A stretch of 64,000 bases of DNA from Candidatus Magasanikiibacteriota bacterium (lineage in GTDB: Bacteria; Patescibacteriota; Patescibacteriia; Magasanikbacterales; GWA2-37-8): NCBI GenBank assembly GCA_016182085.1, contig JACOYB010000008.1, forward strand, positions 10,507 through 74,506. Direction: 5' to 3'. The position numbers and the translations under genes are program-made. The notes below the pieces were generated by a model that had not been told where the DNA came from, searched no databases, and was given only the letters and a program-made list of their open reading frames with translations. This document shows, piece by piece, positions 4,350-25,100 of the stretch; position 1 is the stretch's first letter, and every line of letters begins with the position of its first letter.

Positions 4350-4659
4350 AATGAATTACTAAACAATATATTATCAATTTCAAATACAGAAAATGACTAT
4401 CGATCTAACCATTTTCACTATTTGAATCATTTTATCTTAGATACCAAAGGTGCGACCATCATACCAATAAAGCTCGAAAAAGTCAAGGTGCGGATAATTT
4501 CAAAAAATTCATGTATTTTTGGCTTAACTGGCAATAAAAACAATATAACGACACCTCTTTATATTTTAACTTTATTTGAGATTAATTATATGTTCTGTAA
4601 ACCACAGAACTATGGTATAATTATTCGGTAAACATAGGTTGTTTCAATCTTGGTTATTT

Positions 4660-6387
4660 ATGCTTTTACCAAAAACCCTCAAACTCATCTTAAAAAAATA
4701 TAAACTGGGCGATGCCGACAGCTTAAAGACTGCTGAAGCTAAGGCCGCAAAAATGAATAAAGATTTGGAAGAAGTCCTTATTGCTGATGGCGTGGTAAAC
4801 GAAACAGATCTATATGAAAAAGCGGCTGACTACCTAGAAATCCCTTATATTAGCCTAAAAGGTAAGGAAATTAAAAAAGAAATTCTCAATTTAATTCCCG
4901 GACCCGTAGCTGGCACCCATCAAGTCGTGGCTTTTGACACCGACAAAGACGAGGTTAAACTTGCCATGACCGACCCCACAGATATTCAAACCATAGAATT
5001 TTTACGCCGTAAAACTGGATTGGAACCCAAAGTCTTTATCACTTCTCCAGGTGACTTAAAAGAGGCCTTACACCGGTATCATGCTGAACTTGAAGATGAT
5101 TTACGCATCGTACAAGACGGTGGCAATGAAGTAAATGGCGGAGACCTGAAAAAAGCCGCTGAAGAAGTGCCGACTATCAATATCGTTAACACGGTGCTGG
5201 AGCACGCGGTGTACGAAGGCGCGTCCGATATTCATATTGAACCGGCTGAAAAGGAGCTGTCCGTACGCTATCGCATTGATGGTATCTTAAAACCGGTCAT
5301 GACCCTGCCCAAAAACGTACAAAGCGGTCTTATTGCTAGAATTAAAATTCTAGCCAATCTTAAAATAGACGAGCACATGGTGCCGCAGGATGGCCGTTTT
5401 AAAATTCAACTTCAGGATGAAAAACTGGCATTCCGCGTCTCTATTATTCCAGTTTATGATGGCGAAAAAATCGTCTTGCGCCTACTCCACGAAACTACAA
5501 AACCGCTAACCTTAGACCAACTTGGGTTTTTAGATGCCCCTAGAAAAATCCTGGAAACTGCCATCAAAAAACCGCACGGCATGATTCTGGTTACCGGCCC
5601 TACCGGATCCGGTAAAACTACCACCCTATACTCCGTCCTGGGAATTTTAAATCAACCCGGCGTAAATATCTGCACGATTGAAGACCCGATAGAATATCGT
5701 ATGCCGGGTGTTAACCAAAGCCAGATAAACGCTAAGGTTGGCTTTACCTTTGCGGCTGGCTTACGCTCCTTCTTGCGTCAAGATCCAAATATCATCATGG
5801 TAGGTGAAATCCGCGACCAAGAAACAGCCGAAATTGCTATTCATGCGGCCATGACCGGACACTTGGTGCTTTCCACCTTGCACACCAATAACGCCCCCAC
5901 TACCCTGCCTCGTTTGGTAGATATGGGTGTGGCGCCGTTTTTGGTGGCTTATACTACCAATATTGTCATGGCTCAGCGTTTGGTCCGCAAAATTTGCACC
6001 TATTGTAAAAAAGAATACAAACTTGATAAAACCGTTGGCAACGAACTAGGCCGCGTCTTTGACGTAAAAAAAATTTCATCTCTATTTAAAGATAATATTC
6101 CAAAAAACTACAAAGATGAAGGCAGTGATGTAGAAAAAATTACTTTCTATAAAGGCGAAGGTTGTAATCGCTGCGGACAAACCGGATATAAAGGCCGCAT
6201 GGGTATTTATGAAATTTTGGAAATGGATGAAGAGTTAATAAAAATGATCAACGCGCACGGCACCGCCGATGATATTAAAAAATACGCTCGTGAAAAAGGC
6301 ATGATTACCATGCTTGAAGACGGACTTATAAAAGCCAAGATGGGAATTACAACCATTAGCGAAGTTCTGCGCGTAACCAAAGAATAA
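4660..6387 (+). CDS. pilB: Type IV pilus assembly ATPase PilB/GspE
   Basis: ASDIHIEP, GPTGSGKTTT, EDPIEY, LRQDPN, two CxxC motifs; ATG at 4660 preferred over TTG at 4639. Confidence 0.93.
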   Translation: MLLPKTLKLILKKYKLGDADSLKTAEAKAAKMNKDLEEVLIADGVVNETDLYEKAADYLEIPYISLKGKEIKKEILNLIPGPVAGTHQVVAFDTDKDEVKLAMTDPTDIQTIEFLRRKTGLEPKVFITSPGDLKEALHRYHAELEDDLRIVQDGGNEVNGGDLKKAAEEVPTINIVNTVLEHAVYEGASDIHIEPAEKELSVRYRIDGILKPVMTLPKNVQSGLIARIKILANLKIDEHMVPQDGRFKIQLQDEKLAFRVSIIPVYDGEKIVLRLLHETTKPLTLDQLGFLDAPRKILETAIKKPHGMILVTGPTGSGKTTTLYSVLGILNQPGVNICTIEDPIEYRMPGVNQSQINAKVGFTFAAGLRSFLRQDPNIIMVGEIRDQETAEIAIHAAMTGHLVLSTLHTNNAPTTLPRLVDMGVAPFLVAYTTNIVMAQRLVRKICTYCKKEYKLDKTVGNELGRVFDVKKISSLFKDNIPKNYKDEGSDVEKITFYKGEGCNRCGQTGYKGRMGIYEILEMDEELIKMINAHGTADDIKKYAREKGMITMLEDGLIKAKMGITTISEVLRVTKE

Positions 6388-6389
6388 AT

Positions 6390-7496
6390 ATGCCCAAAAA
6401 AGAACGGAAACTTTCTCCGCTTGAGATAAAAATCAATGCTTGGATAGAACATCACTTGCACCGCGTACCAATAATGCAAAAAATTCTTTTTGTCAGCCAT
6501 TTAAAGACTATGGTTAAGGCTGGTTTATCTCTGATTGATGCTTTGCGCATTTTGAGCCAGGAAGTTGAAAATAAAAAATTAAAAAATATTATTGCGGATA
6601 TTACCGAGGGTGTAGAGAAAGGCCAGCAATTCAGCGAGGTACTCGCGCGATACCCAAAAATTTTTCCTCCCGTATATGTCAGTATGATCGCGGCCGGAGA
6701 AACCGCGGGAAAAGTTGAAACGGCGCTTGAACAAGTTTCAATACAGATGAAAAAAAATCACGAGTTAACTTCTAGAATTAAAGGCGCCTTAATGTATCCG
6801 GCAGTGATTGTTATCGCTATGGTAGGCATTAGTATTGAAGTCGTGGTATTTATCCTGCCAAAATTACTGATAATGTTTAAAGAATTTGACGCGCAACTGC
6901 CGCTTCCAACCAGAATCCTCATTGGTATTACGGATTTTACCCAGAAATACGGATTGTGGATGGTTATAGTTTTAATTCTTCTAATCATCGGGGCCGTACA
7001 ACTGCTAAAACAATATAAAGTTAAACGGGTGGTACATACAATAAATTTAAAATTGCCCATTATTGGCAGTATTATTAAAAAAATAAATTTGGCTCGTTTT
7101 ACCCTTACCCTTTCATCCCTGCTAGAGAGCACCATTCCAATCATTGACGCCACTCGCATCTCCTCGGATGTATTAAATAACGTAATTTATAAAGAAAAAT
7201 TGATGGCAGTTTCTGAATCCCTTAAAAAAGGCGAGGCATTATCAGATATATTAAGACAGTCGCCGACAATCTTTCCTCCCATGGTAACCGAAATGATCAT
7301 GGTTGGAGAAAAAGCCGGAAAAAGTGAAAGCATGTTAAGAGAACTTTCTGAATACTACGGAAACGAAGTAGATACGACTATGAGGAATTTTACGACTATT
7401 ATTGAACCGATCATTATTTTAGTTATGGGTCTGGCGGTAGCTGGCATCGCTGTAGCAATCATTATGCCTCTATACTCTCTGGCGCAAAATATTTAA
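6390..7496 (+). CDS. pilC: Type IV pilus platform protein PilC/GspF
   Basis: Two T2SSF repeats (AGETAG, VGEKAG), ALMYP, IEP. Confidence 0.93.
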   Translation: MPKKERKLSPLEIKINAWIEHHLHRVPIMQKILFVSHLKTMVKAGLSLIDALRILSQEVENKKLKNIIADITEGVEKGQQFSEVLARYPKIFPPVYVSMIAAGETAGKVETALEQVSIQMKKNHELTSRIKGALMYPAVIVIAMVGISIEVVVFILPKLLIMFKEFDAQLPLPTRILIGITDFTQKYGLWMVIVLILLIIGAVQLLKQYKVKRVVHTINLKLPIIGSIIKKINLARFTLTLSSLLESTIPIIDATRISSDVLNNVIYKEKLMAVSESLKKGEALSDILRQSPTIFPPMVTEMIMVGEKAGKSESMLRELSEYYGNEVDTTMRNFTTIIEPIIILVMGLAVAGIAVAIIMPLYSLAQNI

Positions 7497-7499
7497 AGT

Positions 7500-8609
7500 A
7501 TGTTTTTGCACAATCCTTTCTACGATGCCTTTGGTCTGGATATTGGCGATCTGTCAATAAAACTTGTCCAGCTTGCTCCCGTGTCTTTTTACCACAAGCA
7601 GGTGTTTAAAATTAAAGAACTTCGCACGACGCCACTGCCACCGGGCCTGATTGTAAACGGCGAGATTCAGCAGCCGGAACCCGTACGTAAAAAAATTTTA
7701 CACCTACTTGGCAAAGAAGGCGAGGGTTTTAAACCAATCCGCTCGCCATGGGTGGTAGCCAGTCTTCCGGAACCAAAAACATTCTTCAAATTAATAGATG
7801 TTGATATTAATTATGAAGCGCTCACTTCCGTTGATATTGCCTACCAAGCCAAAAAGCATCTCCCCTATGAACTTGAGGACACATACTTGGATTGGCAAGT
7901 AATTACGGGAACCGTAAAAGAAAAAAATACACAGGTACTCATTTCCGCGACACCAAAAATAATAGCTGATTCGTACACTTACTTACTGGAAAGCACGGGC
8001 TTAAACCCGATAGTCTTGGAAGCGGAAGCCGTAGCTATTGCGAGAACCATGATTACCTATGACAAAGATTATACCGGTGAAGCGCGGGCGATTTTGGATC
8101 TGGGCGCTACCCGTTCTAATTTAACTATTTACGACAATAACAGCATTCAGTTCAGCACCACTCTAAACTTCTCCGGAGAAATAGTTACATCCGCAATCGC
8201 CCAAGAATTAAAAATAGAACACGCGCGGGCTGAAAGTTTAAAAATTAAAAACGGACTCACCTATGATGAAAAACATCCGAAATATTTAGCGGCGGTCTCG
8301 GGAATTGCCGACAAATTGATCGCTGAAATTAAAACAGCTCTAACTTTTTATAAAGAGCATTTTGATAATACAAATGACATAAACAGGATTACCCTCTGCG
8401 GAGGCACGGCAAATATGGAAAATATAGAAACTTTCCTTTCTAAAGAATTAAAAATACCAGCCCAGGCCGGTCATCCATGGAAAAACTTAGAAAATAAAAA
8501 ATTATACGAATTTGAACCAAAAAGGAGTCTTTCTCTGGCGAGCGCTATCGGCCTGGCGCTTCGCGCCACGCAGAATCCACTTTTAAACCACAGGCATGAA
8601 GACTTTTAA
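7500..8609 (+). CDS. pilM: Type IV pilus assembly protein PilM
   Basis: FGLDIGDLSIK, LDLGA, LCGGTA, AIGLALR. Confidence 0.92.
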   Translation: MFLHNPFYDAFGLDIGDLSIKLVQLAPVSFYHKQVFKIKELRTTPLPPGLIVNGEIQQPEPVRKKILHLLGKEGEGFKPIRSPWVVASLPEPKTFFKLIDVDINYEALTSVDIAYQAKKHLPYELEDTYLDWQVITGTVKEKNTQVLISATPKIIADSYTYLLESTGLNPIVLEAEAVAIARTMITYDKDYTGEARAILDLGATRSNLTIYDNNSIQFSTTLNFSGEIVTSAIAQELKIEHARAESLKIKNGLTYDEKHPKYLAAVSGIADKLIAEIKTALTFYKEHFDNTNDINRITLCGGTANMENIETFLSKELKIPAQAGHPWKNLENKKLYEFEPKRSLSLASAIGLALRATQNPLLNHRHEDF

Positions 8610-8632
8610 TTATGGTAAAGTGAGACAAAAAT

Positions 8633-9178
8633 ATGATGAACATAAACCTTAATTTACTTCCCAATACGAAAAAAGCTCGTCTGGAAACTACGATCAAGGT
8701 TTTATTTATTAAAAATATCTTGGAGTTATTTCTCTTAACCGCGGCCGTGGTGGGGGCAACTCTCGTATGGAGCTGGATTTTTCTGGAAAACGACTTTGCC
8801 AATCTGGCAGAAAACGCCAACCTTATCAATCGCGAGTATTATACATATAACCAGGACGCGAAAAATATAAATGGTTTAATTAAAAACATCAATTTATCCA
8901 GCCGAAAGTTTTCACCTCTCAGTCCGAAACTTAAAGATATCACTAGTTCCTTGCCGGCAGATATAAAAATTGGCTCTTTGCAAATAAATATGGCCGAACA
9001 GCAAATTATCATAAGTGGCACGGCACTCTCCCGATCTGCTTTGCTCAACTACCAAGCTGTCCTAAATGAAACGCCTTGGATAACTGCCGTGGAAACTCCG
9101 GTTTCACAGTTATTTCAGAAAGAAAATATCAACTTTGAATTTAAAGCCAAGTTAAAAAATTCATCCATAAAAAATTAG
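8633..9178 (+). CDS. pilN: PilN-like protein
   Basis: INLNLLP motif, one TM helix, ISGTA; follows pilM. Confidence 0.8.
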   Translation: MMNINLNLLPNTKKARLETTIKVLFIKNILELFLLTAAVVGATLVWSWIFLENDFANLAENANLINREYYTYNQDAKNINGLIKNINLSSRKFSPLSPKLKDITSSLPADIKIGSLQINMAEQQIIISGTALSRSALLNYQAVLNETPWITAVETPVSQLFQKENINFEFKAKLKNSSIKN

Positions 9179-9189
9179 GATAATTTTAT

Positions 9190-9732
9190 ATGACCGCCGA
9201 TCCAACCAAAAAAATAATCCTCACCGTGAGTTTTTTCTGCCTAATATTTTTAGGGATATTATTTGGTATTCTGGCCCCTACCCTGATCCGCATTAAAAAA
9301 ACTTCCCAAGAGAGCCTAAAATTAAGGATATTTCTAGAACAAAAATACCAAGAGTCTCTTAATTCACGCATTACCAGGAAAAAACTAAGCGAGATTAAAG
9401 AAGCCACGGCTGACTTTGATCGTTTTATTTTTAAACCCGGGGAAGAGTTGGAGCTCATTACTTTTTTGGAAACCTCGGCTGCCAAACATGATGTCGTTCA
9501 AACCATTACCGCCTCCAACCTAGATCAAATAAGCAATAATCGCCTAGCCACCATTTCCATAAATCTCAAAGGCAACTACTATGATATTTTAAATTATATT
9601 ACCGACCTGGAAACTTCCGATTATTTTATTAATATTGATCAGCTGCAAATCACGCCTGTTTTTTCCAAGGAAGGACAAGTTACGCAAACTGCCAACTTAA
9701 ACATTTCAACCGAATTATATGTTACTGAGTAA
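9190..9732 (+). CDS. pilO: PilO-like protein
   Basis: N-terminal TM, coiled coil, LKGNYYDILNYITDLE; follows pilN. Confidence 0.75.
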   Translation: MTADPTKKIILTVSFFCLIFLGILFGILAPTLIRIKKTSQESLKLRIFLEQKYQESLNSRITRKKLSEIKEATADFDRFIFKPGEELELITFLETSAAKHDVVQTITASNLDQISNNRLATISINLKGNYYDILNYITDLETSDYFINIDQLQITPVFSKEGQVTQTANLNISTELYVTE

Positions 9733-10057
9733 AGACAAAATACTGCCATCGCTAAAAACGGAATACAGCCACTGGCGGCTTATTTATATTTTAATATTTG
9801 GTTTACTGGCTTCCGCTGTGGCCTTAACGTATTATTTCATTTATCAAAATGTGTATAGCGCGATTGCCAATGCCAACGCGATCATATCGCTACAATCAAG
9901 TTTAAACATCTACAACCTGGATATTCCAGCCTTTGAAAAAGCGACGGCGGCAATTGAAAAAAAACAAAAAATAGGAGGGTTTCCCTCAAACTCCAGAAAT
10001 ATTTTTTACTATAATTCTTCTACTTCCACCTATGGTAACTCCAGCACTTCTCGCTAA
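9719..10057 (+). CDS. Hypothetical single-TM protein in the pil operon
   Basis: Overlaps pilO stop; one hydrophobic helix. Confidence 0.7.
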   Translation: MLLSKDKILPSLKTEYSHWRLIYILIFGLLASAVALTYYFIYQNVYSAIANANAIISLQSSLNIYNLDIPAFEKATAAIEKKQKIGGFPSNSRNIFYYNSSTSTYGNSSTSR

Positions 10058-11270
10058 GCCAACGTATTGGTTTGTACTAGGAAGGGAATCAAAAATCGCT
10101 GCGGCTGAAATAGCCGCGATTTTAAATTTTAAAAAGCATACATACGCCTCAACAATATTAAAAATTCAAGACATATCATTTAGAGAACGCCTGTTTACAT
10201 CAGAAATGACACTGGACCCATCTCAGTTGATGCGCCGTTTGGGCGGTACGATTAAAATCGCGAAAGAATTGGCTGTAAATATCACCGAACAGCAAATGAA
10301 CAATCTGATCCGAGAAGAATTGAAAACTATTTCTGGAAAAATAAACTTTGGCATTAGTATTTACCGCGAAAACCAAGATAAGTATGCCGATTTAAAATTG
10401 GCAACCGATATTGGCAAGAAAATAAAAAGGTCTCTAAAAGACGAGGGGTTTTCCGTAAGATACGTAGAAAACCGCGAACCAATCTTATCTTCGGTTACAG
10501 TTGAAAAAAATAATTTGACTGGCCGAGGCCGAGAATTTTTAATTCAAAAAAATATAAACAATACGTTTTCCGTGGCCAAAACCGAGGCTGTCCAGCCATT
10601 TGAGGATTTCAGCGCGCGCGATTTTGGCCGGCCCGGACGCGATGATATAAGCGGCATGCTGCCTCCAAAACTAGCTATGATCATGATTAATCTTGCCCAA
10701 GCTCCTTTGGAGGCTGTAATTATGGATCCATTTTGCGGATCCGGCACGATACTGAGCGAGGCATTACTGATGGGATATACGAACGTAATTGGTACCGATA
10801 TTTCGAAAAAGGCAATTTTAGACACGAAAAAAAATATTGATTGGATAACTGCTAAATTTAATATTTCAACTAATGAGTCGCGTATAACAATTGAACAAAA
10901 AGACGCGGAAGAAATAGGAGCTTTTGTTCCGCCAGCTTCTGTCAGCAGCATTATCGCCGAACCTTATATGGGCAAACCGCTCAAAGGCCGCGAAACTAAA
11001 GAAGAGCTGCTGTTGCAAGCAAACGAACTTAAAAAATTATACGTTTCGGCTTTTGCGCAATTTTATAAAATACTACAACCGGGAGGCGTGGCTGTATTTT
11101 TAATCCCTCGTTTTAAGTATCAAAGTGAATGGATAACCATTAACTGCCAAAAAGAAATAGAGGGGCTTGGTTTTAAATTATTGCCATTTTTTGAAGACAA
11201 CATGCCTCTTATCTACGCCCGCCCCGACCAGAGAGTAGCTAGAGAAATTTGGAGATTTAAAAAAGTGTAA
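10032..11270 (+). CDS. SAM-dependent RNA amino-methyltransferase (Trm11/TrmG10-like)
   Basis: GMLPPKLA, DPFCGSGT, motif IV variant EPYMG. Confidence 0.8.
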   Translation: MVTPALLAKPTYWFVLGRESKIAAAEIAAILNFKKHTYASTILKIQDISFRERLFTSEMTLDPSQLMRRLGGTIKIAKELAVNITEQQMNNLIREELKTISGKINFGISIYRENQDKYADLKLATDIGKKIKRSLKDEGFSVRYVENREPILSSVTVEKNNLTGRGREFLIQKNINNTFSVAKTEAVQPFEDFSARDFGRPGRDDISGMLPPKLAMIMINLAQAPLEAVIMDPFCGSGTILSEALLMGYTNVIGTDISKKAILDTKKNIDWITAKFNISTNESRITIEQKDAEEIGAFVPPASVSSIIAEPYMGKPLKGRETKEELLLQANELKKLYVSAFAQFYKILQPGGVAVFLIPRFKYQSEWITINCQKEIEGLGFKLLPFFEDNMPLIYARPDQRVAREIWRFKKV

Positions 11271-11280
11271 TCACACCTTC

Positions 11281-11730
11281 TATCACCCCATTTTGTCAGC
11301 AAAACGGGGTGATGCCCCAAAACTGCCTCGCGGATGAATATCTCACAGCCAGTTCGGATTAGAATTTTTCCTCTGGACGATACGTCCAGACACGGAAAAA
11401 CTAATCTCGAACTGCTTGGTTCAATATTCATATGCTCGGTTGGACACTTGGGTGTCTGTCGCTTGTCCGTACATTGTCCCGGCGAACATTGGAATTAAGA
11501 GGATAGCAGACAGAGATGAACCGGAACGGTTGCTCCGACGGAACGTCGGAGAATTTGTCCTGCTGTTTGAGCTCACCTGTTATATACAGGTGAGTGAGTT
11601 CAGGACAAAAGTGATGGTGAGTCCTGTCTGGCTCCGAATAATTCCACCGTGAGCGATTTCTTTCCACCCCCTTTCTTTTAAAAGAAAGGGGGTAAGGGAG
11701 GTGTGTTTTTGCTGACAAAATGAGGTGATA
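11281..11730. ncRNA. Candidate large structured non-coding element (~450 nt)
   Basis: 24-nt terminal inverted repeat with one mismatch enclosing many hairpins; no convincing ORF. Confidence 0.6.
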
Positions 11731-11811
11731 AATGTTGGCAAGCGGTTTTCTACTAAGGAAAGCGGCTGTAAGGAATTACACAAGGTGGAAAGCCTAAGAT
11801 AAAAAGAAGAA

Positions 11812-12888
11812 TTAATTAGCTATATGAAAAAAACAAACATCCCCATCCTGCACCGCATAGTCTTTTCCTTCCAACCTCATCTTTCCTGTACTTCTAATTT
11901 TATTCCATCCCCCAGCTTCTACAAAATCCTTCCAGTTTACCACATCGGCTTTCACAAAACCTTTAATAAAATCCGTATGTATTACCCCGGCGGCTTCAGG
12001 CGCTTTAGCGCCATTTCTTACAGTCCAAGCCCTGGTTTCCTGCTCTCCGGAAGTAAAAAATGTAAGTAAATTTAATAATTTATAGCTAGCGGTAATCAAT
12101 TTATCTAATCCGGTTTCACTCATTCCCAATTCTTTTAAATAGTCTTTGGCTTCGGCTTCGGTTAGATCTGCCAGTTCTGCTTCTAGTTTTGCCGATATTT
12201 CTATCTGCGGTGTTGACTCGCTCACCTTTGGAACCTCGGCACTGGCAATATTTTCATCCATATTTACCACATAAAGCATTGGCTTCATGGTCAGTAGCTG
12301 CAATTCTTTCATCAAAATATTCTCATCTTCATTATATTCCAACTCACGAGCCGGCTTACCGGCTTGCAATTGCTGCTCCACTCTTTCCAAAACTGCGATT
12401 TGTTTTTCAAATTCTTTAGCTGACGCGCCTTTGGCAGATCGTTTGGTGTTATCTAATTTTTTGGAAACTGTTTGTAAGTCTGCAAGCGCTAACTCTAAAT
12501 TTATTACTTCTGCGTCATTTTTTGGATCAACTTTATTATGAACATGAATAACATCATGATCGGTAAACGAACGTACTACCTGAACAATTGCGTCCACTTC
12601 GCGGATGTGAGACAAAAATTTATTTCCCAAGCCTTCGCCTTCGGAAGCGCCTTTTACCAAACCAGCAATATCAACAAACTCTATTACTGTGGGGATAATT
12701 TTTAAAGAGGAAGAAGATTCGCTTAATTTTTGCAGCCTGTTATCAGGCACCTCAACTACGCCAACGTTTGGATCAATGGTACAAAAAGGATAATTTTGCG
12801 CGTTTGCCTGTTTACTGCGGGTAAGGGCATTAAACAGCGTAGATTTTCCAACATTTGGTAAACCAACTATACCAACAGATAATGACAT
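11812..12888 (-). CDS. ychF: Redox-regulated ATPase YchF
   Basis: GIVGLPNVGKST, NYPFCTIDPN, DIAGLVKGAS, GEGLGNKFL. Confidence 0.98.
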   Translation of the reverse strand: MSLSVGIVGLPNVGKSTLFNALTRSKQANAQNYPFCTIDPNVGVVEVPDNRLQKLSESSSSLKIIPTVIEFVDIAGLVKGASEGEGLGNKFLSHIREVDAIVQVVRSFTDHDVIHVHNKVDPKNDAEVINLELALADLQTVSKKLDNTKRSAKGASAKEFEKQIAVLERVEQQLQAGKPARELEYNEDENILMKELQLLTMKPMLYVVNMDENIASAEVPKVSESTPQIEISAKLEAELADLTEAEAKDYLKELGMSETGLDKLITASYKLLNLLTFFTSGEQETRAWTVRNGAKAPEAAGVIHTDFIKGFVKADVVNWKDFVEAGGWNKIRSTGKMRLEGKDYAVQDGDVCFFHIAN

Positions 12889-13031: not shown

Positions 13032-16000
13032 CTAATTCTTCTTTAATTTCACATCAAGATTAATGGTTTCGGCATCCTTGCCTTCCAAATCAATAATGTC
13101 CGTTTTTTGCGGATGATACTCCTTATGTTCGTATGTAACATAATATTTTGCATCTCCGGCCAAGAAATAATACTTACCGCTACTATCGGTAATTTGCGTA
13201 TCTACCAGTTTATTGAACTGTGAATTAAACAGTCTGGCGACTACTCTGGAAACAGGGGTTTTGCTGGCATCATCATAAACAATACCCCAGTTTCTGGCCT
13301 TGGCAGGCATAGCTAATTTGCGGAAAACGAAGAATAATAAAATATGGGCAAATAACAAAACTGCGATATACCATTTAGGAGAGATAAATAAGGAAGCGAT
13401 TGTAACCAAAATGCCGACTACAGACAAAATATTCTGCAACCTGCGTCCAAATTTTTCCCAGGCCAAACGGCTTGGCTTTTTCTGCGCGCCTATTGGATCC
13501 AAAGGTATAGTGGCTGTAATACCGGCTGTACCTGTAACCTCAACTACCTCCCCATGGTAAATATCTACTTTCTGGCCATCGCTCTGGAAACCCTCCAAAA
13601 ACTTGGATGGGAAAATAAAATTACTCTTCTGTGCCTGCAGCCTATACTTTCCCGGGCCAACCATAAAAATAAAGCGGCCTTTTGAATCTGTCACTTTGGA
13701 TTGCATAACCCGTCCATTTTCCGCGTTGATGAGCCGCACCATTGCCAAATCAACCGGTAATTTATTTAATGAATTATATACCAAACCCCATTTTTCTCTT
13801 TTTCTCCAACCAAGAAGCATGAGCGGCTGCAAGAACAACAGTCGCAGGAAAGGCAAAAAATCCAACCACGAAATAAGCGGTACAGCACCGGCCACAACCA
13901 CGGTAATTACCGCGGGTGCTACTACTTGTTCATTTATTTTCTTTACCTCGGGATCCGAAACTACATCTTGAATTTTTTGTACGGCTACGGTTGTTAAAAC
14001 CTTTGTTTGACCGGCTAGCGCTCCAACAATATTTTGAATATTTTCCACGAGCGGAGCTTCCGGATCTATCTCTAAAATAAGTTCCGGTGGACGGGCAATG
14101 AGCGTGAATTCTGGGTTGATTACATTATTACCTACGTTATTTATACTGAGTGTACGGTTATAATACCCATCTTTCTCCAGGCTTATCCTAAAATTTCCGT
14201 TTGGCACCATCCAGCCAAAGCTGCCGTTGGCATCAGTTACAATTGGGTTTAATTCACCATAATTCCCCATGTTTATGGGTTCGTCATTTGCTCCATACAA
14301 CAAAACTAAAACTCCAACCAAACTTTGACGGTCATCATCTACCACCTGGCCCCATGGCAAACTGTTCAATCTAAATCCGACCGAATCACGCTGATTTGAT
14401 CCATAATCAATTTCCACAAATGCTTGGGTGAATCCGAGTTGATTAAAAAATAAGCTGGCATAGTACATCCGGTCGGTAGCATTATAGACAAACTGATGCG
14501 CGTCCGTATCCCCGACACGAAGCACCATACTTTCCGGCCGGCTATATAAAATTTCTTCAGGAATCGCTACGGTAAGATTTGCTCCCGATAAACCAGTTAC
14601 AACTTCGTCAACTGGAAGAAGCCGTATATTACGATTGCCTGCCAAAAATACTAGGCCGTTTAAATTTATTTGCACAAATTCCGGCACGGTAGGTTCGGGT
14701 GGATTATACTCGTCCGTATCACTGCCGCTTTCACACCCCGGGTCAGCGGGAAAATCAACTAAACTATCACCATCATCATCTGCTCCATTATTACAAGCAA
14801 CCAACTGACTTGGCGCGCAACTGCCAAAACCCGCGCAAGCGGTATCGGCGCAATCTACTTGTCCGTTGTTATTATCATCCAAACCATTATCGCATATTTC
14901 CGGACTAGGAGGTGTGGAGGTAGGCGGGGTTTGACCGCATTCGGGTAAAGAAGCGCAAGCGGTATCGGCGCAATCTACTTGTCCGTTGTTATTATCATCT
15001 ATATTATTTCCGCATATTTCTGTCGGAGTGGTGGCTGGTACGACTGCGCCGCTTCTAAAAATGCCCGGGCTGTTGTTACCCGACGTATCAAAGGAAAAAA
15101 TCGTATAAAAATAAGTAACATTTACAATTATATTCGTATCCGTAAATGTTCCATCGGTTCCGGCATATACAACTGTGCCATCGCTGGGATTATTTGAAGC
15201 TGAACCAATTTTTCGCACCACCCTCACCTGGGAAAAATCCGGAGTTCCGGCTATGCTGGGATTTGTCCATGACAATACAATGGAATTACTGGTTGTAACC
15301 AAAACAAAATTAGAAACATCTGGTGGCGGAGTTGTGTCCGCGCCTGTAGTAAATGTCGCGTCGGTTGTGCTGGCGCTATTGCCGCTACTATCTGTGGAAA
15401 TAATTCTAAAATGATAGGTAGTATTAGGGCTTAAATTAAACAACAATGCGGTGTGCGATAAAACTCCGGCGGAATCAAAATAATTACTGCCGTAGACTGC
15501 GGTTGGCCCGTAAATTATTTGCGTGTCAGCTGACTCATTTGTATCCCACCGTATACTGCTTGTAGTTACTCCGGTTGAAATTTGAATACTACTGATAACC
15601 GGCGGCGTAGTATCCGGTGGTTCGGGGGAAGTAGAAAAAGTGCCGGTAAATTCGGTGGTCTGCGGCTTAGTATCAACAACTGAAATTTTAAAATAATATA
15701 AAGTGCCGGTAGCCAAACCGGTTAAACTGGTCTGATAATTTCCCGTAACTGTGCCAGAGTTTCCATAACTAGTATTTAGACCATACACAAAAGTTACACT
15801 GGAAATACCCAAGTCGTCGGTAGCACTCCAACTAATACCGGCCGTAGTAAAGGAAGTGGAAGAAGCGACGTTAAAAATTACTGCCGGCACATCCGATCCG
15901 CCGGGGCCGCCACCGGTTCCGCCACCGCCTCCTCCGCCACCGGAAGGCACGGTAGCATTTACAGTTATGCCCTGATTTACTTCTGCGGCGTGCGCACGCT

Positions 16001-16088
16001 CTCCCTGTTCAGTGTGAATTCCAAACCAAAAAAAGCTGCTAAAAATAACAGCTGCAAATAATATAATTTTTTTTAATTCTTTTGCCAT
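13032..16088 (-). CDS. Membrane-anchored surface protein: FN3 domains, Cys/Asp-rich metal-binding repeats, carboxypeptidase-regulatory-like domains
   Basis: Signal peptide; L..GTLYYFKI and LSPNTTYHFRI FN3 signatures; EICxNxxDDNNNGQVDCADxxC repeats; TDxxG motifs; TM helices near the C-terminus. Confidence 0.8.
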   Translation of the reverse strand: MAKELKKIILFAAVIFSSFFWFGIHTEQGERAHAAEVNQGITVNATVPSGGGGGGGGTGGGPGGSDVPAVIFNVASSTSFTTAGISWSATDDLGISSVTFVYGLNTSYGNSGTVTGNYQTSLTGLATGTLYYFKISVVDTKPQTTEFTGTFSTSPEPPDTTPPVISSIQISTGVTTSSIRWDTNESADTQIIYGPTAVYGSNYFDSAGVLSHTALLFNLSPNTTYHFRIISTDSSGNSASTTDATFTTGADTTPPPDVSNFVLVTTSNSIVLSWTNPSIAGTPDFSQVRVVRKIGSASNNPSDGTVVYAGTDGTFTDTNIIVNVTYFYTIFSFDTSGNNSPGIFRSGAVVPATTPTEICGNNIDDNNNGQVDCADTACASLPECGQTPPTSTPPSPEICDNGLDDNNNGQVDCADTACAGFGSCAPSQLVACNNGADDDGDSLVDFPADPGCESGSDTDEYNPPEPTVPEFVQINLNGLVFLAGNRNIRLLPVDEVVTGLSGANLTVAIPEEILYSRPESMVLRVGDTDAHQFVYNATDRMYYASLFFNQLGFTQAFVEIDYGSNQRDSVGFRLNSLPWGQVVDDDRQSLVGVLVLLYGANDEPINMGNYGELNPIVTDANGSFGWMVPNGNFRISLEKDGYYNRTLSINNVGNNVINPEFTLIARPPELILEIDPEAPLVENIQNIVGALAGQTKVLTTVAVQKIQDVVSDPEVKKINEQVVAPAVITVVVAGAVPLISWLDFLPFLRLLFLQPLMLLGWRKREKWGLVYNSLNKLPVDLAMVRLINAENGRVMQSKVTDSKGRFIFMVGPGKYRLQAQKSNFIFPSKFLEGFQSDGQKVDIYHGEVVEVTGTAGITATIPLDPIGAQKKPSRLAWEKFGRRLQNILSVVGILVTIASLFISPKWYIAVLLFAHILLFFVFRKLAMPAKARNWGIVYDDASKTPVSRVVARLFNSQFNKLVDTQITDSSGKYYFLAGDAKYYVTYEHKEYHPQKTDIIDLEGKDAETINLDVKLKKN

Positions 16089-16125
16089 ACACAAAACGGC
16101 CTATTTCTGAAAAACTATTTTAATA

Positions 16126-19100
16126 TTATTCTGCGGCTGTGCTGGTGTTAACAATATTTTCGGCGGGAGGCTGTTCCAAAACAACCGGTTCCGTGCTGCT
16201 GGCAACCGGCTCAATGGTTTCCGATACGGTAGAGGTGGAGGGGTCTGTAGTAGTAGAAGTTGTTGAACTTGGGCTTTCTTGAGAAACTTCTGGAGTTTCT
16301 GGAATACCTGCACCCCCGGATGATTCATTTATAGCTTCCGGAACAACTTCTTCGGGCTGTAATACTTTGGCAATCACCGTCCAATCAAACGCAGCATTGC
16401 TTTGGCCGTTTTCATTTTCTTTCACTACAAAGCTGTCATAATTTCTTTCTGATACATACACGCCTTTGGTGTCGCCAGACATCGTAATTTGAATATTAAG
16501 CGGTACGGATCTATCTATAATTGCCTGATCAAGATCGGTTAAAACTACTCGTCTTGTCCCATTTTCCAAAGTGCTGGTGCCGGAAATTACGATTTCCTGT
16601 TTACCAGCGCTTTGCAAACCATAAATTTCTTTGTCGCCAACCGCGGTTGTGATTTTTTGTATTAAGTTGCCAAACTCATCAATTTTCCATTTATCATCTT
16701 TGCCAATAATACCGGCCACGTTAATAATGGAATTATTTTGCAAATCAAGATTGCCGCCGGAATATACTAATTGATTATTATTACTTTCCACGCTTAATGT
16801 ACCTGGGTTAGCTCCTGGAGAAAGATTTATACCTTGAGCTATTGCCAACTGTTCTATATTATTATGCAAATTATCTATATCTTTATCTCTGTTATACACC
16901 CAACCGGTTCTAATTAACGCTAAAATTTTACCGGTTGAAGAAGCTGGCAATGGCTCAAGCGCCACCCCAATTATACCTACAACTTTATTATTCTTGTCCT
17001 TGGTCGGATCATATTTCATGGCAAATCCGGCAGTTGACGCGCTCACAAGCAAGTCACCTCTGGCAATGGCGCCATTTTCAGCAGAAACTTTTACCGGCAC
17101 GCGGCCCACCATGGCTAGTACGGCCGTGTAATCTGTCTTGCCATTCCCAACTACGATAGTTGGGTTGGTAGAAATTACACCAGCCACCGATTGTTCGTAA
17201 GCAGAATTGCTACGACGGTATGTATCTGGCGAATTTGGATCTACCATCATTACATCTCCAGCTTCAGCCGTATCGTCAATGGCAATATCTACTCGTTCGG
17301 CTAAATCTCCCGGATTAGTGGAAGTGCCCAAGACCGCGCTTGCGCCATAGTAATTGCCGGAAGTATGAACATCACCATTGGCAGCCACAGAGAATACTGA
17401 ATTATTATTAGCTCGCAGAGAAATAATATAATTATCGGCCAGAGGCGAAGTAAAATTGGCGGCATTAAAGGTAAAGGCTCTTGACCCGGCAAAACTACCA
17501 ACATTAGATTCAAACAATGTGGAGGTGGCAAATGAAAGCTTGTTGACTATGCTGTTATTGGCAAAGGAAATATTGCCGGAAATGATAAGATCAAAAGGAT
17601 TGGTAGAATCGCCAACGGTAATGGTGCTGCTGGTAGTATCTATCGTTAAAGGCGACTGTCCCGGCGCCCAAGAAGGCGAAATAAAGACTTCAATGACGCC
17701 AGTGCCGCTGCCAGCAAACGATTCCAGCGCCCGACCGACAATTACTCCGTCTTTTTTAGCTTTCATACCAACGCCGGGCAACGAGGAAGCGGCAATGGGG
17801 TCGCCAGCCAGGATGGGGCCATTTTCATCGGAGACTTTGGTCGGCACGCGACCCGACAGAGTGACAAGACGCCCATCTTCGCTGCTCGTCCAATCGGAGA
17901 GCCGGATACCGGGGTTCGTGGAAATTACACCAACTACCCCATCATAGGCGCCGGTTGTTTTTTCCACGGTTGGTCTAACGCCGGAAGAAGAAGTGGCTAT
18001 CCGTACGAGGTCGCCGGCCGTGATTGAAAGGTCATCCACACGGTATGACTCGGCCAAGTCAAAGCCTTCAATCTGGAACTGCTTTCCCCAGAAGCTATTG
18101 GCATAGACGTTCATAAAGAAAGCGCCAAGAGAACCGATATTTGAGCCGCCGGTAAAAGAGCCGCCGGTGGTATTTTTACAGCCGGGGGTCGCGCATTTTG
18201 CCGCTCTCAAATCAAGATCTGTGACGTTGTAATAACTAATTACCGGCAAGCCATCCGTGCCAATGGCGATGGAGGTGAACTGGCCCTGATTTCCGGTGCT
18301 GTCAATGGTGGTGGTAACATTACCCGATGAGCAGGAGGCGTTGCCGCATTTTGCTACCCTCAGATCAAGATCTGTACCGTTGTAATAACTAATTACCGGC
18401 AAACCATCTGTGCCAATGGCGATGGAAGAGAGTTGGCCTTGATCTCCGGCGCTGTCAATCGTAGTGGTAACATTACCCGATGAGCAGAACGAGTTGCCAC
18501 ATTTTACTACCCTCAGATCGCCATCTGTACCGTTGTAATAACTAATTACCGGCAAGCCATCTGTGCCAATGGCGATGGAGGTGTCCTGGCCCTGATCTCC
18601 GGTGCTGTCAATCGTAGTGGTCACATTACCCGATGAGCAGGAGGCGTTGCCGCATTTGGCTACCCTAAGATCGCCATTTGTCGCATTGTAATAACTAATT
18701 ACCGGCAAGCCATCTGTGCCAATGGCGATGGAGGTGTCCGTGCCCTGACTTCCAGTGCTGTCAATCGTAGTGGTCACATTACCCGATGAGCAAGAGGCGT
18801 TGCCGCATTTTGCTACCCTAAGATCAAGATCTGTGACGTTGTAATAACTAATTACCGGCAAGCCATCTGTGCCAATGGCAATGGAGGTTTCCTGGCCCTG
18901 ATCTCCGGTGCTGTCAATGGTGGTGGTAACATTACCCGATGAGCAGGAGGCGTTGCCGCATTTGGCTACCCTAAGATCGCCATTTGTCGCATTGTAATAA
19001 CTAATTACCGGCAAGCCATCTGCGCCAATGGCAATGGAGGAATTCGAACCCTGATCTCCGGCGCTGTCAATCGTAGTGGTCACATTACCCGATGAGCAGG

Positions 19101-22100
19101 AGGCGTTGCCGCATTTGACCACTCTCAAATCAAGATCTGTGACGTTGTAATAACTAATTACCGGCAAGCCATCTGCGCCAATGGCGATGGAGGAGTATGA
19201 ACCCTGATCTCCGGCGCTGTCAATGGTGGTGGTCACTTGAGTAGATGCGCCAGCGGTCGGCGAGGCATTTGGCAAGACATTACCATCAAAGGTGGATGTG
19301 CCAACCACGGAAAATATAGAAACTGGCGAAGAGGAATTAACCCCAATATTTCCATTTGCCAGCACTCTTAACATACTAGCACCAGTAGATGAGGCAATAT
19401 CAAATAATGGAGTGCTGGTAGGAGTGCTGAAAATGTTAAATGTCGCTCTTTGCGACGTGGTATTTATACCAACTCTACCAAGAGCATCTATTCTTATTCT
19501 TTCAGTTCCAGCTGTCCAAAAAGCCATGCTGTCAGCACTAAGTTGAGACCCACCAGCAAATGTATATCTAATTACACCTCTATTTTGTGCCGTGGTATCA
19601 AAGAATATATCGCTGGTTCCGTTAGTAGCCGCCGTAATGGCAATAAGTCCTTGCGTTTCTGTAGTATTACCTACTTGTAAATCCGCATTTGGAGCATCCG
19701 TACCAATACCAACATTACCATTTTGTAAAATTCTAAACATGCTGGAGCCGGTAGATGATGCAATTTCCAAAGGATTTGCACTGGCTGCTCCTTGCAAAGC
19801 CAGGCTGGCTATTGGCGAAGTTGTGTTAATGCCAATACGCCCATCGTGTAATATTCTTAAGTAGCTAGCACCGGAAGAAGAAGCCACCTCAAAAATAGAG
19901 TTCCCTCCATTTGTAGATGAAGCTGCAATAGTAAAGAATGCCAAAGGAGTAGTTGTACCGATACCTACTCTACCGGCATTAGTAATAGCCATTTTTTGGA
20001 AAGCCGAACCATTGCCGCCGGTTTCAAACTTTATTCCACCTGCATTTGCATTAAAAACTAACCCACCCGAGATATTAGATTGTGAAGACAAAATTCCGGC
20101 ATCCTGCCAGCCTGTAACAGCTGTATAGCCAGTTCCTGCGGTAAGCAATAAAACTCGATCATCAGTTCCTAAACCTCCATTTCTAAAATCAAATCCCGCA
20201 GAGGCGCTAGATCCAGAATTGTTATTATCAATTCTAAGACCAGACTGAGCAGATTGATCTAGGCGGGCATGGATTAATTCACTTGGTGTAGTCACTCTAA
20301 CTCCAAGGTTGCCAGTCATTACACCCACATCGCCATTTGTTAAAACACGGAATAAACTGGCGCCAGTAGATGAGGCAATTTCCACAGGATCTGCGCTACC
20401 TGTTCCTTGTAAAGCCAGAGTGGCTATTGGCGAAGTTGTGTTTATGCCAACTCTGCCATTTTTATCTATAACAAACAAAGATGTATGATTGCCAGCGCCG
20501 TTTGCCAAAGCATTGGTACCTACATCAAATAAATAAGCATTTGTTGAAGACATGGCCGTGACTAAAGGAGAAACACGCAGAGCGGAAATATATTGACCGT
20601 TATATGATGGGGATGTTGAAACAGTGGGGGCAACATCAAGCCCGATAAAATTTCCTGTACCAGAACCAGGATTAAACGTTCCTCTAACTTGCGCCATAGT
20701 AGAAGTCCCTGAGGTAGCTTGACGTTGGTTGTCATCATTAAAGAATACTGAAACACCGGATAAATTAGTTGCAAGGTTTCCCGCCACACCCATACCGGTA
20801 TTAGTATAGGCACGGATATATGGGTTTGTGCCTGCAAAGAAATACTTACCAAAGCTGGAGGTAAATATAAGCCCGGCGCTTTCTGAGAACTGGAAGCTAT
20901 GACTTCCGCCAGAGCTTTTTAAAGTTAGATCGCCAATTGAATCTGTGCTTAGAACAGAAACTGATGATGTTACTATATTTATAAGAGGAACTCCTCCTTG
21001 ACCGGTAAGCGCAAACGAAGCGACTGGAGTTGATGTGTTTATACCAACCCTGCCATTTGCCACCACCTTTAATATATTTGATCTTTCCGCAGTATCAATA
21101 CTAAATAGAGAAGAACTTGCTCCGGTAGACGAAGCAAAAACAGATATTGATCCTTGCGACATTATGCCTCCGGTTCCAACATTTAATCCTGTGCCGGCCA
21201 TAATGTTGCCCTGAGCAAAAATATCATTTCTGGATTGAATGTTTCCGACTTCGGCGCTGTGGGCGATAAGGCTGGTAACTTCCGTGCCGGAGATATCAAT
21301 AACAAACATAGAATTTAAACCACTGCTTACTGCATAGAGATAACGACCAGAGACAAAAATGGAGTTAGAACCGGCGTTTGTACCTAAAGCAAGCGTGGTA
21401 ATAAGAGTCGGCGCCGAAGAGCTAGAAACATCAACAACAGCAATGGTTTGATTTGATTGATTTGCCACATACGCATAGCGGCCGGAGACAAAGATGGAAG
21501 CAGGACCTGAACTCGCACCCACAGAAGTGGTGGCAATCTGTGTTGGCGCAGACGCATTTGAAATATCAATAACAGAAATACTATCAGATGTGTCGTTGGC
21601 TGTATAAGCGTAACGACCGGAGACATAAATGGACATTGGTCTTGCATCCACAACAGTGCTAGAAACTTGAACGGGGATTGATGGATTGGAAATATCTACA
21701 ACAGAAACAGTATTGGCGGAAAAATTAGTTACATAAGCATATTGGCCGGAAACATAAACTGAGTTTGCCCCATCACCAACAGAAGTGGTGGCAATTTGCA
21801 CTGGCGCTAACGGGTTGGATATATCAACAACAGACATGCTATCTGAAGTAAAGTTCGCCACATAAGCATAGCGGCCGGAGACATAAATTGATCTTGGGCT
21901 TGAACCAACCGCAACGGTAGAAATTTGTCTTGGAACTGCGGCGTTAGAAATATCTATAATTGATATGTTATTACTACCCTGATTTACTGTATAAGCGTAA
22001 CGACCGGAGACAAAAATTGACCGTGGATTTGTGCCAACGGAAGTGGTGGCAATTTGCACTGGCGCTGCCGGGTTGGATATATCAACAACAGATATTGTGC

Positions 22101-25100
22101 TGGAATTATAATTACCAACATAAGCGTAGCGGCCGGAGACAAAAATTGATTGGGGGCTATTTTCCACAGAGGTGGTAGAAATCCTGGAAATAACGGTATT
22201 AGCATCCGTAATGTTGGAAATATTTCCGACTACGGATAATTTTTGGGTTGGGGTAGTCGTGCCAACACCTACATTGCCATTTGCATTTATTCTAAAAATG
22301 TTTGTTGAAGGAGAAGAAGATACTATATCTAAAATAGGATTGCCACTGGCGGCAGCTTGCATGGTGATAAATGCGTTGGCAGAGGTGGTGTTAAATCCAA
22401 AATATGGAGCTTCGCCAATATTAAAGACGGTGTTATTAGAGCCATTTAAAACTTGAAATTCATTTATACCATTGCCATTAGCATCAATTCTCATAAAAAT
22501 TGAGTTATCAGAATTGATATTGAATCCATTATCCCCTTGTCCGTAAATTTCTACGCCTCCCGCGCTATTTACCAAGTTAACAATAGCGCTATCACTGGCA
22601 GTGCTGTGCACTATATCTCCGTTTGTTAAAATTCTAAATAAATCCGCCCCGCTAGAAGATACAACGGCAAAAGGATTTGTTCCGGCCGTACCTTGCAAAG
22701 CAAGGCTAGCAACCGGTGAAGAAGAGTTTATGCCAACTCTGCCATTTGTCAAAATCGTAAACATAGAAGAGGCGGCGGCAGTGTTAGTGACAACCGAGAA
22801 AGGATTTACAGATCCAGATCCTTGGACTGCCAAACTTGCCGACTGAATAGTAGTAGTGCCGACAAATATTCCGGTTTTGGCAAAAATGTAGCGCGGATTT
22901 CTCGTGCCGCCGCCTATATCAAAAGTATTATCGGTGCTAAAACCAACATCGCTGCCGAACAATGTAGCGCCGGTACTATTGCCAACTATGGTTTGATTAG
23001 AAGAATTAAGGCTAATTAAATTTAGATCTCCGGTGTTGGCGGCGTTTCTTATATTTATGCCTGTATTGGTTGAGAGCCGGATAGCGCCGGCGGTGGCTGG
23101 AACATTGCCAATACTTAACGCGCCGTTTCCGCCAATAGTTAACGCGTTGGTTGGAGTGCTTGTACCAATACCGATATTTCCATTGGATAAAACTTTTATA
23201 ATACTGGAAGAGGCGGCGCTATCAATACTAAATATGGAAGATGTGGAGCCTGTAGAAGATGCAAATATAGACAAACCGCCTTGAGAAAAAATTCCTCCAG
23301 CGCCAACATTTAACGATGTCCCAGCCATGATATTGCCTTGAGCAAAAACATCGTTTCTGGATTGAATATTCCCGACTTCGGCAGAGTGAGCAATAAGACT
23401 GGTAACTTCCGTGCCGGAAATATCAATGATGGAAAAGTTGGATGAAGTGTAATTAGCCGTATACGCATAGCGGCCGGAGACATAGACCGATTTAGGAGCC
23501 GAACCAACAGTGACACTGGTTAATAGGGCAGGATTCGTTGAGCTGGCAACATCAATTATAGACATGTTAGTTGAAGCGCTATTAGCCACATAGGCGTAGC
23601 GCCCTGACACATAGATATCTGTAGGGTCGCCTGCGGAAACAGTACCGACTGTTACGGGATTTGATGAACTGGATATATCAACAACAGAAACAGTATTTGC
23701 GGCATCATTTGCCGTATACGCATAGCGGCCGGAAACATAAATAGATGCTGGGCCTGTGCCCACAGAAGTAGAGGCTATAAATACTGGGGCCTGAGGATCG
23801 GAAACATCAATTACCGATACACTGGCTTCGTTATAATTGGCTGTATAAGCAAACCGGCCCGAGACAAAAACACCGTTAGGCTGAGAACCCACGGTAGTAG
23901 TAGAAATTCTTACCGGAGATAAAGGATTAGAAATATCAATAATGGTCATGGTAGTTGCACTGCCATTAACTACATAGAGATAGCGACCGGACACATATGG
24001 TGATTTAGGGCCGCCACCTACAGTTATGGTAGAAACTTGTCTTGGGGCAGACGGATTGGAAATATCAACTATAGAAACATTAGCGCCGTTACCATTTGTT
24101 ACATAAGCATACCGACCGGAGATGTATAAATCATTTGGGTTAGTACCAACTGAAGTGCTGGCAACAAATCTCGGGTACGCTGGGTTAGAAACATCAACAA
24201 TCGATATGCTATTTTCAACTTGATTGGCTGTATAAGCATATTTACCTGAAACAAAAATTCCAAGTGGGTTTGACCCAACCGAACCAGTACCAACTACAGA
24301 AACAGCAGTGCTTGGATCTGTAATATTAGAAATATTTCCCACCACGGATAATTTTTGCGCCGGGGTACTTGTGCTAATACCAACATTGCCATTTGTTAAA
24401 ATGGTAAACATAGAAGTAGCGGCGGCAGTTGAACTTACAACCGAGAAAGGATTGGCTGTGCCCGTTCCTTGGATAGTTAATTTTGCTTGCGGCGTAGTGG
24501 TGCCGATTCCAATTAAACTGGTTGGTAAAATAAACAAAGTGGAAGTGCCAACCAAGGTTGTTCCATTGGAAGCATAATAAGAAAACTGTCCGGCGGTGCC
24601 GCTACTGACCGTGCCGCTGCCACCTATACCCAAAGAAGACGTGGAAACCCAAGTAACTACCGAACCATTACTTTGAAGAAGATAACCATTTACTCCCAGA
24701 CTGGAAACACTATCATAAATTCCACCCGTTAATGCTAAATCGCCTTGAACTGAAAGAGTGGCTATCGGAGAAGAGGAATTTATACCCACTCGGCCATTTG
24801 TCAGAATAGACAACAAAGAAGCTCCTGTAGAAGAGTTTATACTAAAAGGATTAACCCCGGCCGTACCTTGCAATGCCAAACTGGCTATTGGCGAGGAAGA
24901 ATTTATGCCTACTCGGCCATTTGTTAAAATCGTAAACATAGAAGACGCGGCCGCGCTGGAAGATACAATTGAAAACGGATTTTCTGTTCCACTTCCTTGA
25001 ATTGTAAATTTAGCAGACAGGGTAGATGTGCCTATGCCGATTCTTCCGTTGGCAAGGGCTCTAAATATATATGGCGTCTGAACAGAGCCAATGTTAAAAA

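Follow-up and report, generated by a model that had tools for sequence, protein, structure and literature searches.

Among the described systems closest to the locus reported here are the REP, REPIN and BIME repeats (RAYT, Y1 HUH), which in the cited parts of PMC3116915 and PMC3733652 appear as gene-less intergenic palindromic units that form inverted doublets with a preference for unlike partners, build mosaic clusters by insertion into or beside older copies and carry a short unpaired tag at one end. The CGTC-tagged REPs and the Ssn-related motifs (SRM/NTS), which go with Ssn GIY-YIG nucleases, have a GTC-containing tag 5' of the stem, the SRMs being 20-50 nt long (PMC11893778, in the part cited). 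In integron attC sites and the attC-like DUF1874 motif structure matters over sequence, one strand is active, and extrahelical bases and a variable tip are present (PMC5737381, in the part cited). Finally, the Flavo-1-type motifs of Rfam occur in many intergenic copies with a conserved fold and an orientation unrelated to the neighbouring transcripts (PMC2864571, PMC9723704, in the parts cited).

The element and its parts

The stretch analysed here, called the window, comprises 64,000 nt of the forward strand of contig JACOYB010000008.1 (positions 10,507 to 74,506) from a Candidatus Magasanikiibacteriota bacterium, whose genome (GCA_016182085.1, here G000) amounts to 1.06 Mb in 11 contigs. The element lies in the 541-nt gap between two convergent genes, a methyltransferase gene ending at 11270 and ychF ending at 11812. 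The original prediction had regarded this stretch as a single non-coding element closed by a 24-bp stem, and all the pairings that it named were located: the stem 11281-11304 with 11707-11730 (one mismatch), the hairpin 11666-11693, a local fold at 11282-11313 and the inner helices at 11372, 11442, 11519, 11533, 11554/11601 and 11572/11586, as well as the ORF at 11732-11797. The fold of 11271-11800 was also far better than those of 100 shuffled controls on both strands (z -11.2 on the plus and -10.9 on the minus strand, with 0/100 as good on either), and a comparably strong fold on both strands points away from one RNA. The flagged stretch is in fact made of two unlike units placed head to head, one read on each strand, rather than of one RNA. 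The features are:

10032..11270, plus strand: RNA-methyltransferase-like gene, left flank, outside the element (PF01170, E 2.7e-11; ORF list)
11282..11313, minus strand: terminal hairpin of the left unit, type H1, which is the alternative local fold of the original prediction (inverted repeat I3)
11314..11325, minus strand: T-rich linker from the left arm to its terminal hairpin (from the sequence; like the linker after most arms)
11326..11439, minus strand: left arm, of the rod type, read outwards from the spacer, with a tip 30 nt shorter than in the run X1 allele
11440..11481, no strand: 42-nt spacer built from short GTCC/GGAC-type units that occur in both orientations, mostly at 7-nt intervals
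11482..11654, plus strand: right arm, read outwards from the spacer (model R1, 81.8 bits, E 1.4e-16; covariation; loop census)
11655..11693, plus strand: T-rich linker, then the right unit's terminal hairpin at 11666-11693, type H2 (inverted repeat I2)
11706..11730, plus strand: 3' part of a terminal hairpin of type H1, probably left over from an older unit, forming the right arm of the 24-bp stem
11732..11797, plus strand: 21-codon ORF, incidental, lying over remnants (ATG at 1/8 homologous positions; no Pfam match)
11746..11766, plus strand: 3' part of a terminal hairpin of type H2, probably a second remnant (matches the 3' part of complete H2 hairpins of relatives)
11776..11790, plus strand: third remnant, a degenerate H1-type 3' end (by eye; resembles the outermost end of many relatives)
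11812..12888, minus strand: ychF, right flank, outside the element (PF06071 and PF01926)

The right arm is a ladder of helices with GA/GA 2x2 loops, leading to a three-way junction and an inner module at about 11552-11611. Since the GA/GA loops lie on the minus strand in the left arm and on the plus strand in the right one, no single strand is favoured, although the predicted lean of G-U pairs to the plus strand was correct as a count (6 vs 3 over the two arms). The predicted rod is in place, but its ATA apex is probably not normal sequence: a run X1 contig spanning 11307-11668 is 30 bases longer after 11379, which restores the inner loop of the family, the short tip is in no listed contig, and at the matching point the sister copy on contig C1 is interrupted by an N gap (G000:C1:85643-85726). 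The 30 bases missing between 11379 and 11380 are a deletion allele or an assembly collapse.

Elsewhere the window holds a type IV pilus cluster (4639-10057) and, on the minus strand, a predicted membrane-anchored protein of 1020 aa (13032-16094) adjoining a predicted surface protein of 3812 aa with repeated propeller-like blocks (16126-27564).

With Rfam 15 at the gathering threshold the window gave five tRNAs and nothing on the element, for which no family came even near threshold; at E values up to 10 the region had chance hairpin matches only, and 29 related loci (12 + 1 + 16) matched no family at threshold. RNase P and tmRNA were rejected as the identity of the element, both genes having been found elsewhere in G000, and covariance-model scores for RNase P, tmRNA, SRP, 6S and Flavo-1 fell short of threshold.

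Anatomy of the family and comparison with known repeats

We collected 89 distinct arms, 74 of which remained after removal of near-duplicates. The units, which are about 200 nt long and carry no genes, have the order 5'-(GTC tag)-arm-T-run-terminal hairpin-3', with arms of 114-208 nt among those collected and typically of 130-190 nt. Single units with a sharp 5' start were found in genera g5, g7, g8, g9 and g14, and inverted pairs in g1 and g4. In the pairs the 5' ends of the arms face each other across a spacer of 22-46 nt made of short GTCC/GGAC units; 21 distinct spacers were seen, in which the commonest GTC-to-GTC spacing was 7 (17/48). The 32 distinct pairs represent 16 combinations of types, none of them of like type, with an arm-to-arm identity of 0.46-0.62, and the partner arms fold separately. 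Identical sub-hairpins reappear with different partners, so that sub-hairpins too are shuffled between copies.

These units share several features with the REP repeats, being gene-less, intergenic (in all five G000 copies) and arranged as inverted doublets of unlike partners in mosaic clusters. Nevertheless the REP units are palindromes of 20-40 bp, whereas here branched arms of 130-190 nt with GA/GA ladders are followed by a terminal hairpin, and unlike in REP doublets, as far as the sources cited describe them, the two arms do not pair with each other. Moreover GTAG was found within 9 nt of the arm start in 0/74 arms, and G000 has no Y1 transposase. The family is therefore REP/BIME-like in its behaviour and not a member of that group.

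Any likeness to the SRM repeats would lie in the tag: GTC occurs within 9 nt 5' of the arm in 53/74 arms (GAC in 3/74) but is absent at several single arms of other genera. None of the 74 arms matched the SRM pattern as published in the cited part of PMC11893778, and none of 30 GIY-YIG loci had an arm or terminal hairpin of the family nearby. The CGTC/Ssn-type repeats were seen nested inside some arms (G003) or directly after the terminal hairpin (G021) at L014:1659-1834, L026:176-351, L018 and L035. A further Magasanikbacteria-type family consists of single long rods around the same inner module, with neither three-way junction nor terminal hairpin (L096, L101, L106, L116, L161, L167 and L170).

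With attC sites the arms have in common the predominance of structure over sequence, a single active strand, extrahelical bases and a tip that varies, but the RYYYAAC / GTTRRRY pair surrounded 0/72 arms in either polarity, there were no gene-cassette arrays, and the one tyrosine recombinase gene of G000 (PF00589) has no arm near it. Conserved folds in many intergenic copies, oriented without relation to the transcripts around them, recall the Flavo-1-type motifs; RF01705 itself was rejected, having no match in G000 at E up to 1. No published description of the family was found in a search that lay outside most subscription journals and bioRxiv supplements.

Conservation of the fold and its polarity

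Covariation was evaluated on 37 class I arms selected out of the 89, using the structure of the window's right arm. Changes on both sides were found for 50 of 59 pairs, a count inflated by related sequences, and 87% of cells paired as against 65.7% in shuffles (0/500 as good) and 34-47% when the partners were slid. A consensus fold obtained independently gave 20 of 24 pairs with changes on both sides, related sequences inflating this count as well.

Read from the spacer outwards, 149 of 226 internal loops of 2x2 type are GA/GA, and 124 of these have Y-GA-R on both strands, while the opposite strand has 0/84 and shuffled sequences 7/56. Sheared tandem GA pairs are stable in the Y-GA-R context in both DNA and RNA. 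G-U/T pairs number 301 on the folded polarity vs 126, and the basal helix has Watson-Crick pairs in some copies and GA/GA in others. A difference in folding energy between the strands was seen in 45 of 48 arms, an observation that is in part circular, since GA mismatches are scored favourably by the RNA model. The arm fold is kept by compensatory change and by GA/GA loops on one strand only. Template switching can also produce compensatory change in palindromes when there is no selection; that the GA/GA loops are fixed speaks against this as the full explanation, though not decisively.

Copies, empty sites and refilled sites

The original prediction had listed a non-autonomous mobile element among its options, and this is the one that found support. 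G000 contains five copies of the element dispersed among ordinary genes, and BLAST located pieces of it in 12 of 61 genomes. With a covariance model for one arm class, arms were detected in 16/61 relatives, in 14/36 others in the family and in 3/151 genomes drawn from the phylum, the window's own included; as the counts come from the class II arm model, they are lower bounds. A metagenome scan gave 46 loci, of which about 36 were judged to be true arms and the rest chance matches. Many copies lie at contig ends, the element being one that breaks assemblies.

At the site of the window's copy the element is absent from 13 of the 14 other genus genomes with ychF, and in G004, whose ychF is 98% identical, the site is filled with other arms across a contig break. 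Three further sites of G000, at typA, gatB and RNase J, were compared in five genomes, copy C1:85544 being left out. Different arm types occupy them in G000, G001 and G012, and empty sites were found in 2/5, 2/5 and 3/5 genomes, respectively, one genome being uninformative at typA and at gatB. The typA and gatB copies lie, as read by eye, between a terminator-like hairpin and promoter-like sequence. In run X3 a contig with an empty site was present alongside the filled allele and probably comes from a related strain. The closest empty sites are too different for the exact insertion junction to be read. The common flanks at typA are explained equally well by repeated insertion and by a single old insertion that later underwent gene conversion and loss.

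Comparison of G004 with G000 at the typA and RNase J sites showed an identity of 96-98% on one side of the element position and of 86-87% on the other, which looks as if an empty allele had entered by recombination ending there.

The gap between the methyltransferase gene and ychF has other occupants as well. In G008, G001, G002 and G015 (L083, L084, L087, L092) it contains another kind of branched palindrome, about 100 nt in length and closed by a long A+T-rich stem, in G007 a CGTC-type hairpin (L090) and in G003 an inserted gene (L091). These differing occupants across relatives mark the gap as a hot spot for several elements. In G001 (L084) the last codons of ychF are duplicated a few bases apart.

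Terminal hairpins and their probable remnants

The tails of 81 arms were surveyed, 6 of which had no motif, against a background of 0.1 motif per shuffled 200 nt. The first motif after the arm was a complete hairpin in 71 of 75 cases, whereas the later ones, about 25 nt apart, were 3' halves only in 43 of 49. These outer half-hairpins are probable remnants of older units. In the window the 24-bp stem is the terminal hairpin of the left unit pairing with a half-hairpin on the right side; it pairs as predicted, but it is not the defining end of the element. It can form in only 3 of the 5 G000 copies.

The ORF at 11732-11797 overlies two further half-hairpins. Of 8 homologous positions in the genome, only that of the ORF itself has the ATG, and the GAGGTGA ahead of it is replaced by GGGGTGA at the other seven. 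The peptide of 21 residues has no Pfam match and, by inspection, no hydrophobic segment.

Related repeats in other phyla, plasmids and viruses

The inner module was found at 100 loci of the genome collection, often in multiple copies, as in Anoxynatronum, Tindallia, Draconibacterium, Azoarcus and Polyangiaceae, each with its own long stem. In an unbiased tally GC-GNA-GC was the commonest tip of the module (26 + 5 + 3 matches, dominated by two Anoxynatronum genomes), while the tips of Magasanikbacteria arms are mostly longer hairpins and GNA triloops are not the rule there. According to the cited part of PMC13037366, only GNA triloops form the DNA mini-hairpin GC-GNA-GC, which is very stable, its RNA counterpart melting far lower. 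Some records titled Gammaproteobacteria or Udaeobacter carry Magasanikbacteria-type arms themselves; since these titles may be wrong, the records were not counted as other phyla.

A related core was present at 17 loci of viral contigs, many of them with a T-run and a terminal hairpin like those of the family described here, and one such unit occurs at 518 places in 147 plasmid records, mostly Ralstonia megaplasmids, being unannotated in 30 of the 30 listed. In P2-like prophages the related core was observed in an intergenic element of 200 nt in the gap between capsid and head genes (L291, L292, L302, L304). The arm pattern itself had no match in the viral contigs, where the inner-module pattern gave two chance matches inside a coding region, and the plasmids had no match to the right arm. 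Model R1 scored 3 of 32 inner-module loci from other phyla, the best with E 0.003. The link to other phyla rests on a short inner module and a similar tail. Clustering of the genes neighbouring 82 inner-module loci revealed no common family of mobile type, only housekeeping families and ORFs overlapping the repeats.

It is conceivable, and we propose it tentatively, that the arms belong to an undescribed superfamily of DNA folded as a single strand, with one inner module and one terminal-hairpin design, in CPR, Firmicutes, Bacteroidota and Proteobacteria. The enzyme that moves its members may be a recombinase or nuclease acting on single strands, from a family that has so far had no known link to mobility, and in Magasanikbacteria new units would overwrite older ones and leave a readable stack of footprints.

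Search for a putative mobilising enzyme

The Y1 transposase (PF01797), absent from G000, is present in 1 of the 15 other genus genomes. There were no arms beside 67 loci of Y1, GIY-YIG, GxxExxY, four-helix-bundle and tyrosine-recombinase genes, none at 18 Y1 loci scanned with R1 and none alongside 36 DUF559 loci. Complete terminal hairpins were found at 1 of 103 candidate-enzyme loci, and in the metagenome scan no arm flanked a gene on its spacer side. Small GIY-YIG genes occur in all 16 genus genomes, and G000 codes for four such proteins. Within the genus, GxxExxY genes are present in 6 of 10 genomes bearing the element vs 0 of 6 free of it, and the counts for small DUF559 genes are identical (Fisher p 0.034 each, the genomes being kin and not independent). 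The DUF559 association was rejected because it breaks down at family level, where DUF559 is lacking in 5 of 6 arm-bearing genomes of other genera.

Some of these genes have framing sequences of their own. Small DUF559 genes (L387-L392) are framed by inverted ends consisting of a hairpin and a purine tail, which loosely resemble the H2 hairpin of the window's right unit; this hairpin, with its purine tail, is somewhat like the DUF559-cassette ends, the sequence being of low complexity and the resemblance a likeness only. Inverted runs of 7-9-nt units stand on both sides of the GxxExxY and four-helix-bundle genes of the genus (L226-L243), and at L237 the framing units are closely like the spacer units of the element.

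Proposed mechanism and alternative explanations

The element is a head-to-head pair of unlike gene-less, multi-copy units of about 200 bases with a strand-specific fold, and on balance we think it probable that these units enter and are exchanged at their sites in the form of folded single-stranded DNA, through an enzyme encoded in trans. The fold would then be read on DNA rather than on RNA. A putative trans-acting single-strand nuclease or transposase would recognise it, with one cut at the 5' foot of the arm and another within the terminal hairpin or next to it, and the unit would be cut and joined as single-stranded DNA, landing at gene boundaries and on older units. Where a new unit landed on an old one, the old arm would tend to be removed and the 3' half of its terminal hairpin left outside, with short units of old insertions staying in the spacer. 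Overwriting of this kind, with residues left behind, would build the observed tail stacks and spacers, and recombination between copies may then shuffle arms and sub-hairpins. The DNA reading is favoured by the placement at boundaries of transcription units, by the lack of a promoter-like site, by loops of palindromic rather than RNA type and by the mini-hairpin of the relatives.

The single large ncRNA that had been proposed does not agree with halves that fold on opposite strands and recombine freely between copies, nor with the lack of a promoter-like site. A different RNA explanation takes each unit as a small ncRNA gene or an RNA-mobilised repeat, giving two RNAs of 150-200 nt that diverge from the spacer and could be protein-binding scaffolds or templates for spread driven by reverse transcriptase. 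The fold is compatible with RNA, and tandem GA and G-U pairs are stable in RNA too; a G-U pair next to a tandem GA loop is a frequent motif of RNA. The strong covariation, the polarity to one strand, the sharp 5' start of the arms and the U-run after them would also suit such genes, and folded DNA and RNA are described as hard to tell apart computationally in the cited part of PMC5737381. However, a sigma-70-like promoter site was found 5' of 0/73 arms, with no conserved -10 position and none in the window region, GNRA and UNCG are not among the common loops of the arms, the terminal hairpin is not followed by a U-run, and neither the Rfam searches nor the patchy presence among close relatives agrees with an ncRNA. 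We consider this explanation rather unlikely.

Another explanation would have the arms serve the host as signals on single-stranded DNA, for instance for primosome assembly or priming, or as hot spots for recombination or DNA uptake, the inverted pair providing one signal per strand. The arms may resemble primosome-assembly sites, a likeness which our literature search did not confirm. One folded arm per strand is what this predicts, the fall in identity between G000 and G004 across the element position at two sites is as at a recombination junction, and the cited part of PMC13037366 reports that replication origins have GA-rich ladders and GNA mini-hairpins. On the other side, the element was not found in 6 of the 15 other genus genomes, several of them about 100% complete, and in Anoxynatronum the folded strand of the related repeat shows no replichore bias (11 vs 14). 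We regard a host signal as a quite improbable reading.

A classical MITE of 450 bp, with terminal inverted repeats of 24 bp and a DDE transposase, would account for a multi-copy intergenic element with the repeat (0-1 mismatch) at both ends of 3 of the 5 G000 copies. Yet one end is missing in the other 2, the end pattern is absent in 3 of 5 element-bearing relatives searched, and both ends are without the repeat in most relatives. The interiors are mosaic, single arms exist, and no target duplication was visible at three comparisons of filled and empty sites, the empty sites being diverged. This explanation is already largely refuted and we hold it to be very unlikely.

The switch or type I toxin, in which an alternative 5' fold of a long RNA frees the ribosome-binding site of the 21-residue peptide, can draw on GAGGTGA ahead of the ATG and on a closed fold about 20 kcal/mol better than the local folds, were the whole region one RNA, but it is largely refuted by a short ORF neither conserved nor hydrophobic, lying over terminal-hairpin remnants with no promoter-like site in the window region, and is hardly credible.

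Significance

An element of this kind imitates large ncRNAs in covariation screens. Branched folds of single-stranded DNA beyond the hairpin are described as rare in the cited part of PMC5737381. If the DNA reading is true, a structure-reading enzyme remains to be found, and as the inner module is also present in cultured bacteria, this enzyme can be sought in the laboratory. CPR genomes are streamlined and regarded as poor in selfish DNA, yet this lineage maintains an elaborate repeat, of which the fold and not the letters is conserved and the parts are swapped at fixed gene boundaries.
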